From the NCBI RefSeq assembly GCF_050920415.1, contig NZ_CP169309.1: a stretch of DNA of 64,000 nt. One strand, given 5' to 3'. Positions 61,849 through 64,000 of this stretch are shown here, piece after piece. Every line of letters begins with the position of its first letter. Position 1 is the stretch's first letter. The notes below the pieces were generated by a model, which ran no database searches, was not told where the DNA came from, and saw only the letters and a list, made by a program, of their open reading frames with translations. Both the position numbers and the translations under genes were made by a program. This DNA is from Escherichia coli (GTDB taxonomy: Bacteria; Pseudomonadota; Gammaproteobacteria; Enterobacterales; Enterobacteriaceae).

Positions 61849-62544
61849 ATGTTAGAAGATCTCAAACGTCAGGTTTTAGAAGCCAACCTGGCGCTGCCAA
61901 AACACAACCTGGTCACGCTGACCTGGGGCAACGTCAGCGCCGTTGATCGCGAGCGCGGCGTCCTGGTGATCAAACCTTCCGGCGTCGATTACAACGTTAT
62001 GACCGCTGACGATATGGTCGTGGTCAGCATCGAAACCGGTGAAGTGGTTGAAGGTACGAAAAAGCCCTCCTCCGACACGCCAACTCACCGGCTGCTCTAT
62101 CAGGCATTCCCGTCCATTGGCGGCATTGTGCATACGCACTCCCGCCACGCCACCATCTGGGCGCAGGCGGGCCAGTCAATTCCGGCAACCGGCACCACCC
62201 ACGCCGACTATTTCTACGGCACCATTCCCTGCACCCGCAAAATGACCGACGCAGAAATCAACGGCGAATATGAGTGGGAAACCGGTAACGTCATCGTTGA
62301 AACCTTCGAAAAACAGGGGATCGACGCAGCACAAATGCCCGGCGTTCTGGTCCATTCTCACGGCCCGTTTGCATGGGGCAAAAATGCCGAAGATGCGGTG
62401 CACAACGCCATCGTACTGGAAGAAGTCGCTTATATGGGGATTTTCTGCCGCCAGCTTGCTCCGCAGTTACCGGATATGCAGCAAACATTGCTGGATAAGC
62501 ACTATCTGCGTAAACATGGTGCGAAGGCATATTACGGGCAGTGA
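61849..62544 (+). CDS. araD: L-ribulose-5-phosphate 4-epimerase
   Basis: 231 aa class II aldolase-family ORF ([46 protein letters not shown]..). Confidence 0.97.
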
Positions 62545-62564
62545 TGACTGTATAAAACCACAGC
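62545..62564 (+). promoter_or_regulatory. LexA (SOS) box upstream of polB
   Basis: TGACTGTATAAAACCACAGC contains CTGT-N8-ACAG; begins immediately after the araD stop, 55 bp upstream of the polB GTG. Confidence 0.6.
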
Positions 62565-62573
62565 CAGTCAACC

Positions 62574-62604
62574 AAAACCAGGCTATACTCAAGCCTGGTT
62601 TTTT
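62574..62604 (+). terminator. Intrinsic terminator after araBAD
   Basis: aaaACCAGGCT-atactca-AGCCTGGT-tttttt, 30 bp downstream of the araD stop. Confidence 0.8.
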
Positions 62605-62618
62605 GATGGAATTTCAGC

Positions 62619-64000
62619 GTGGCGCAGGCAGGTTTTATCTTAACCCGACACTGGCGGGACACCCCGCAAGGGACAGAGGTCTCTTTCTGGTTAGCGACGG
62701 ACAACGGGCCGTTACAGGTTATGCTTGCACCGCAAGAGTCCGTGGCGTTTATTCCCGCCGATCAGGTTCCCCGCGCTCAGCATATTTTGCAGGGTGAACA
62801 AGGCTTTCGCTTGACGCCGCTGGCGTTAAAAGATTTTCACCGCCAGCCGGTGTATGGCCTTTACTGTCGCGCCCATCGCCAGTTAATGAATTACGAAAAG
62901 CGCCTGCGTGAAGGTGGCGTTACCGTCTACGAGGCCGATGTGCGCCCGCCAGAACGCTATCTGATGGAGCGGTTTATCACCTCTCCGGTGTGGGTCGAGG
63001 GTGATATGCGCAATGGCGCTATCGTTAATGCCCGTCTGAAACCGCATCCCGACTACCGCCCGCCGCTCAAGTGGGTTTCTATTGATATTGAAACCACCCG
63101 CCACGGTGAACTGTACTGCATCGGTCTGGAAGGCTGCGGGCAGCGCATCGTTTATATGCTGGGGCCGAAGAATGGCGATGCCTCCGCGCTTGATTTCGAA
63201 CTGGAGTACGTCGCCAGTCGTCCGCAGCTGCTGGAAAAACTCAACGCCTGGTTTGCTAACCACGATCCTGATGTGATCATCGGCTGGAACGTGGTGCAGT
63301 TCGATCTGCGAATGCTGCAAAAACATGCCGAGCGCTACCGTATTCCACTGCGTCTGGGGCGCGATAACAGTGAGCTGGAGTGGCGCGAGCATGGCTTTAA
63401 AAACGGTGTGTTTTTTGCCCAGGCTAAAGGTCGGCTAATTATCGACGGTATTGAGGCGCTGAAATCTGCATTCTGGAATTTCTCTTCATTCTCGCTGGAA
63501 ACCGTCGCTCAGGAGTTATTAGGCGAAGGAAAATCTATCGATAACCCGTGGGATCGGATGGACGAAATTGACCGCCGTTTCGCCGAAGATAAACCTGCGC
63601 TGGCGACTTATAACCTGAAAGATTGCGAGCTGGTGACGCAGATCTTCCACAAAACTGAAATCATGCCGTTTCTACTCGAACGGGCGACGGTGAACGGCCT
63701 CCCAGTAGATCGGCACGGGGGATCGGTGGCGGCGTTTGGTCATCTCTATTTTCCGCGAATGCATCGTGCTGGTTATGTCGCGCCTAATCTCGGCGAAGTG
63801 CCGCCGCACGCCAGCCCTGGCGGCTATGTGATGGATTCGCGGCCTGGTCTGTATGATTCGGTGCTGGTGCTGGACTATAAAAGCCTGTACCCGTCGATCA
63901 TCCGCACCTATCTGATTGATCCCGTCGGGCTGGTGGAAGGCATGGCGCAGCCTGATCCAGAGCACAGCACCGAAGGCTTTCTCGATGCCTGGTTCTCGCG
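62619..64000 (+). CDS. polB: DNA polymerase II (B family), 5' portion (3' end outside window)
   Basis: Frame open from GTG 62619 to the window end; translates [30 protein letters not shown].. with exonuclease motifs and the pol motif [10 protein letters not shown]; not in the ORF track because no stop lies in-window. Confidence 0.93.

Follow-up and report, generated by a model that had tools for sequence, protein, structure and literature searches.

An araBAD terminator probably nested within the polB core promoter in an Escherichia coli araD-polB spacer

The spacer between araD, the last gene of the arabinose operon, and polB, the gene for DNA polymerase II, is very probably a dual-use element in which the araBAD terminator is nested inside the polB core promoter. 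The spacer was analysed in a 64,000-nt stretch of E. coli contig NZ_CP169309.1, called the window here, and its features are listed in Table 1. In the proposed mechanism, the araBAD RNA, with both hairpin arms and the U-run, would fold into the hairpin and be terminated at about 62603-62606. The loop of the same hairpin would provide the polB -10 hexamer, and RNA polymerase would start at 62596, within the 3' arm. The polB RNA would then hold only the UGG of the 3' arm and the U-run, and since it lacks the 5' arm it could not form the terminator, so that transcription would continue into the gene through a 23-nt leader. LexA on its box would block the -35 region.

Earlier catalogues for E. coli already record the LexA box, the terminator of araBAD and the start site at 23 nt, and the K-12 polB (dinA) control region is the same locus in another Escherichia. 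The polB sequence papers of 1990-91 by Iwasaki et al. and Chen et al., and the work of Lee et al. from 1986, are said to describe the box and the terminator side by side. Our text searches on the polB promoter and on polB/araBAD read-through returned nothing relevant in the literature that they covered. The present analysis contributes a corrected geometry and a pattern across genera, in which the promoter is invariant and the hairpin is kept mainly beside araD.

Table 1. Coordinates of the features at the araD-polB junction (window positions).
Feature	Position	Strand	Remarks
araD CDS, last araBAD gene	61849..62544	+	From ORF list; annotated araD in NZ_CP169399
Homologue of minor second start, inside araD	62453	+	166 nt upstream of polB GTG; K-12 65946, EDL933 70878
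araD-polB spacer	62545-62618	+	74 bp; from arabinose operon to DNA polymerase II gene
LexA (SOS) box CTGTATAAAACCACAG	62548..62563	+	CTGT-N8-ACAG palindrome, AT-rich centre
-35 position, CAGCCA	62561..62566	+	At 17-bp spacer; overlaps 3' end of LexA box
Terminator 5' arm AAAACCAGGCT	62574..62584	+	Also promoter spacer, -23 to -13
polB -10, TATACT	62584..62589	+	In terminator loop; 7 nt upstream of start
Terminator 3' arm AGCCTGGTTTT	62592..62602	+	From folding and inverted-repeat search
polB transcription start	62596	+	T of GCCTGG in 3' arm; by homology to K-12 65803 and EDL933 70735
polB leader, 23 nt	62596..62618	+	Lacks 5' arm
T-run, 6 T	62599..62604	+	Read from sequence
polB (DNA polymerase II) CDS	62619..64000	+	GTG start; extends past window end

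The spacer, its LexA box and its hairpin

The spacer follows the araD stop codon (TGA, 62542-62544), and araC, araB and araA lie upstream of araD. The annotation of the open reading frame at 62619 as polB was taken from the identical record of E. coli MFDS1022581 (NZ_CP169399), to which the window has 100% identity over 601 bp, compared with 90-95% over 601 bp for most E. coli. The window therefore comes from a divergent Escherichia lineage. The K-12 counterpart of the spacer (65781-65854, minus strand, b0060/b0061) is also 74 bp long, and K-12 coordinates were obtained as 128399 minus the window coordinate. The two spacers differ by four substitutions, all of them outside the LexA box, the -10, the core stem and the T-run; the LexA 20-mer and the GTG are also the same in both.

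The earlier note had placed a LexA-type box by the araD stop, and its coordinates were confirmed, with CTGTATAAAACCACAG beginning 3 nt past the stop codon. The 20-mer at 62546-62565 equals the K-12 polB/dinA box base for base, and when compared to TACTGTATATATATACAGTA it has 13 matches in 20 positions, counted by eye from the sequence. An alignment of 82 sequences, from more than 20 genera, shows no variation in the half-sites CTGTA...CAG, and polB is a member of the LexA regulon according to a review (PMC6590174). With positions counted from the mapped start, the box occupies -48 to -33, and its centre is at -40.5. It therefore lies over the -35 region and overlaps the polB core promoter, as an operator would, and we expect LexA to bind it in the window strain.

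The bare pattern CTGT-N8-ACAG is not significant when taken alone, as the 64-kb window holds two occurrences where 0.55 would be expected, and two were also reached in 8 of 100 shuffles. The other match, CTGTTGCTCTGTACAG at 53129-53144, has a GC-rich centre, lies within a 331-codon ORF (53093-54088, plus strand) and is probably due to chance. In the window strain, an outer 6-nt inverted repeat, TGACTG...CAGTCA, extends the LexA palindrome to 62545-62570. K-12 has CAATCA at this position, so the extension is strain-specific. A different arrangement was found in E. coli Z1323HEC0462 (NZ_CP148331; L086:1500-2300), where an inserted IS200C element separates the polB LexA box from the hairpin with the -10. 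The box is thereby shifted about 720 bp from the polB promoter, and at this distance normal LexA control of polB has probably been lost.

The hairpin that had been proposed at 62574-62604, downstream of the LexA box and ahead of the polB start codon, was also recovered. It is an inverted repeat with 11-nt arms of 100% complementarity and a 7-nt loop, and its stem extends into the T-run; the distance from its end to the GTG, given before as 15 bp, is 14 nt (62604 to 62619). The stem begins 30 nt after the araD stop and contains a 7-bp core (CCAGGCU/AGCCUGG), and its outermost pair is A-U in the window and G-U in K-12. Folding gave -16.3 kcal/mol (z -3.7) for the hairpin segment and -23.6 kcal/mol (z -4.3) for the RNA of the whole spacer, and none of 200 shuffles was as good as the latter. 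Dcm sites (CCWGG) are present in both arms.

With its G+C-rich stem-loop and the U-run directly after it, the element has the structure of an intrinsic (Rho-independent) terminator. It stands directly past a co-directional operon and is kept in the loci where araD is adjacent, as is expected of the terminator of that operon. We infer that termination occurs here in vivo, and the araBAD 3' ends should be found at about 62603-62606. In term-seq data (Adams 2021) there is no araD 3' end, only one internal to polB; we account for this by the ara genes being uninduced in that set. A search of Rfam with 62300-62800 gave no match, and a scan for consensus promoters and terminators called neither in the spacer. 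The miss of the scan is explained by its rules, because the stem enters the T-run and the -35 is poor. In a second-hand statement, the araBAD terminator is described as weak, within the lowest quartile, and so the insulation between araBAD and polB may be leaky and only partial.

Promoter and start site of polB

The start site was taken from published maps covering three strains or species. Kim et al. 2012 (PMC3415461, supplement) give the K-12 polB start as 65803, with a 23-nt leader and an upstream sequence ending in ...GGCTATACTCAAGCCT; the K. pneumoniae start (...GGCTATAATCAGGCCTG) lies 1 nt downstream of that position and is likewise within the 3' arm (PMC3415461). For O157:H7 EDL933, Cappable-seq, which captures only triphosphate 5' ends, places a start at 70735, which every condition column contains (PMC10469882, supplement). 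We checked this position on the EDL933 sequence and found that it is the same T, 7 nt past TATAAT. The comparison table of PMC10469882 also quotes RegulonDB v10.5 for K-12, with 23 nt from the polB start to the GTG. A start on T is unusual, and the reads of Kim 2012 are low (2 and 4). The ROSE in vitro start-site data set has no polB entry, the Shigella M90T dRNA-seq data have no entry for polB or araD, and Cho 2014 provides expression values but no start sites.

The start had been predicted inside or next to the 5' arm of the hairpin, and the three published maps correct this to the 3' arm. The consequence drawn from it, that polB transcripts escape the terminator, still holds, as the RNA starts within the hairpin and the 5' arm is missing from it. 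The earlier note had regarded a start upstream of 62570 as evidence against the idea, and the main start site lies downstream of that point, at 62596. From the start through the first 62 nt of the coding sequence (62596-62680), no significant structure was found in the RNA (z -0.16).

A minor second start is known inside araD, at 65946 in K-12 (PMC3415461) and at 70878 in EDL933, where it appears in some condition columns only (PMC10469882). An RNA from the window homologue at about 62453 would carry the entire hairpin. The -10-like sequence of this upstream start is TATTCT in K-12 and TTTTCT in the window.

The -10 hexamer of the main promoter, TATACT, is close to TATAAT and ends 7 nt before 62596, within the usual 6-8 nt. 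Its first base is the last one of the 5' arm, and the rest of it takes up most of the loop. At the -35 position, CAGCCA matches TTGACA in only 2 of 6 positions and does not qualify as a -35 element. A promoter overlapping the LexA box had been envisaged, and this is right for the -35 region, which the box covers, but not for the -10, which sits in the hairpin loop outside the box. A strong -10 together with a poor -35 fits a promoter that is driven by its -10 or preferred by sigma-S. The hexamer is preceded by a C at -13 (CTATACT), and a C at -13 with TATACT resembles the -10 preferred by sigma-S. RpoS is stated to be needed for full polB expression in the part of PMC6590174 that cites Dapa 2017. 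The C at -13 with TATACT is consistent with this reported contribution, and sigma-S may be used at this promoter.

The -10 is polymorphic within Escherichia. TATACT is found in the window, K-12 and E. whittamii, and the consensus TATAAT in O157/O145, AR_0372, TUM2330 and E. albertii. The K-12 85-mer is at least 99% identical in 2455 of the 5380 matching E. coli records. EDL933, which has TATAAT, shares its start site with K-12, which has TATACT.

Survey of polB loci in the Enterobacteriaceae

The scan covered 80 Enterobacteriaceae polB loci, with one genome per species. A LexA box followed by TATA[A/C]T was found in all 80 loci (TATAAT in 67 and TATACT in 13), and 5 of the 6 positions of the hexamer are invariant in the alignment. 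The distance from the box to the -10 is 20 bp in 77 loci and in one more by alignment (78/80), and 21 bp in the remaining two. The LexA box is separated from the 5' arm by 10 nt of freely varying sequence, and we therefore take the fixed spacing to reflect a single promoter unit.

Retention of the hairpin depends on the neighbouring gene. The hairpin is intact in 56 of the 57 loci where araD is adjacent to polB (median -14.8 kcal/mol), the one loss being in Pluralibacter gergoviae. When another gene lies between araD and polB, it is intact in 10 of 21 loci and lost in 11. The difference gives a Fisher p of 5e-7, a value that overstates the independence of these related sequences. The losses at non-adjacent loci fall into about five lineages, namely Salmonella, Citrobacter sedlakii, Superficieibacter, Pseudocitrobacter and Phytobacter. 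Among the non-adjacent loci that were checked, most have a separate strong hairpin directly past the araD stop, in several cases with a T-run, for example AAGAAGAGGGTCTGGAAACAGACCTTCTTTTATTTTT in Pseudocitrobacter. With the promoter kept everywhere and the hairpin mainly beside araD, these patterns of conservation are modest but clear evolutionary evidence that the element has a dual function.

In several genera, 0.7-1.1 kb of inserted DNA separates araD from the LexA box of polB, and the insertion point is always upstream of the box. The insert contains a divergent DUF4751 gene (Salmonella and Citrobacter) or a co-directional DUF218 gene, and in Pseudocitrobacter an unassigned 170-aa ORF with hydrophobic stretches. 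We also considered whether retention is set by the direction of the neighbour, with the hairpin kept after co-directional genes and lost after divergent ones. The counts of intact hairpins, 6/13 against 4/8, do not cleanly support this rule, and it was rejected.

The stem in Buttiauxella differs fully in sequence yet remains complementary (GTGGTC/GACCAC), with TATAAT in the loop; this case favours a structural role over recognition of the sequence. Covariation in the stem is no higher than in controls, which is due to the stem sequence hardly varying. The 5' arm motif AACCAGG is conserved in 9 of the 11 loci without the 3' arm, and the 10 nt just upstream of it vary freely. Since the 5' arm is conserved where the 3' arm has been lost, part of its conservation does not come from pairing, and this part (-23 to -13) could represent a promoter determinant or a binding site.

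Alternative readings, related systems and consequences

A different location for the polB -10 would be inside the LexA box, at TATAAA (62551-62556), with the start at or just before the 5' arm. This hexamer matches TATAAT in 5 of 6 positions, and the geometry would agree with that of many SOS promoters, in which the box covers the -10 or the start site. We nevertheless regard it as very unlikely and rejected it, as it is contradicted by the published start sites: none of the maps for K-12, EDL933 and K. pneumoniae reports a start there. In addition, TATAAA lacks the critical final T and becomes TACAAA in Salmonella and Citrobacter, and an RNA begun at about 62563 would include the complete hairpin and be terminated by it instead of escaping. 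The chance that the inverted repeat serves chiefly as a DNA operator, at which a dimeric regulator would flank the -10, and not an RNA terminator, is slighter still. Such an operator would account for a stem conserved as sequence with almost no covariation and for a 5' arm that persists where the 3' arm is lost. It would not account for the T-run directly after the repeat, for the repeat being lost almost exclusively from loci where araD and polB have ceased to be neighbours, for the new hairpins after araD in loci without the repeat, or for Buttiauxella, which keeps the pairing with a different sequence. Moreover, we know of no candidate regulator for it.

Another reading takes the hairpin as an attenuator, with polB fed mainly from upstream, through the start internal to araD or through araBAD read-through, and with a leaky hairpin setting the level. 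The second start 166 nt upstream, present in two independent data sets, speaks for this route, as does the reported weakness of the araBAD terminator. On the other hand, the upstream start is seen in some EDL933 columns only and the 23-nt start in all of them, and the invariant -10 in the loop with its fixed 20-bp spacing to the LexA box argues for a local promoter. We consider the attenuator improbable as the main route; the upstream route and the promoter at 62596 can coexist as minor and major. The attenuator reading parallels a proposal for uvrD, for which Easton and Kushner in 1983 reportedly described a terminator-like hairpin located after an SOS promoter and ahead of the coding region. 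Both are LexA-regulated repair genes in which a hairpin of the terminator type separates the operator from the start codon. However, transcription of uvrD begins ahead of its hairpin, so that the hairpin is part of the RNA and a candidate attenuator, whereas the polB start is inside the hairpin and its own RNA does not contain the hairpin.

For the nested terminator and promoter proposed here, phage phiX174 offers another comparison. Its terminator T_H is described as overlapping promoter pA, and the overlap as confounding the measurement of terminator strength. A terminator and the next promoter thus share one short stretch in both cases, but T_H/pA belongs to a phage genome and has no repressor operator, and the comparison concerns the overlap as such.

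If the nested arrangement is correct, the same 30 bases would stop a strongly inducible sugar operon and start a damage-inducible polymerase gene, and this dual use would depend on the second RNA starting within the hairpin. Measures of araBAD terminator strength by downstream reporters may then be inflated by the embedded promoter, and mutations in the terminator will also alter the polB promoter. We further suggest, only tentatively and as an unlikely extension, that arabinose-driven transcription cross-talks with the SOS control of Pol II and that the 5' arm carries an extra promoter constraint. Cross-talk is conceivable because the 3' end of the araBAD transcript extends over the LexA operator and the terminator would set polymerase free directly on the polB promoter. 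Its possible routes are leakage at a weak terminator, eviction of LexA from its box and promoter occlusion. polB may therefore respond to arabinose, and if the cross-talk is real, the sugar status of the cell would change the levels of Pol II.
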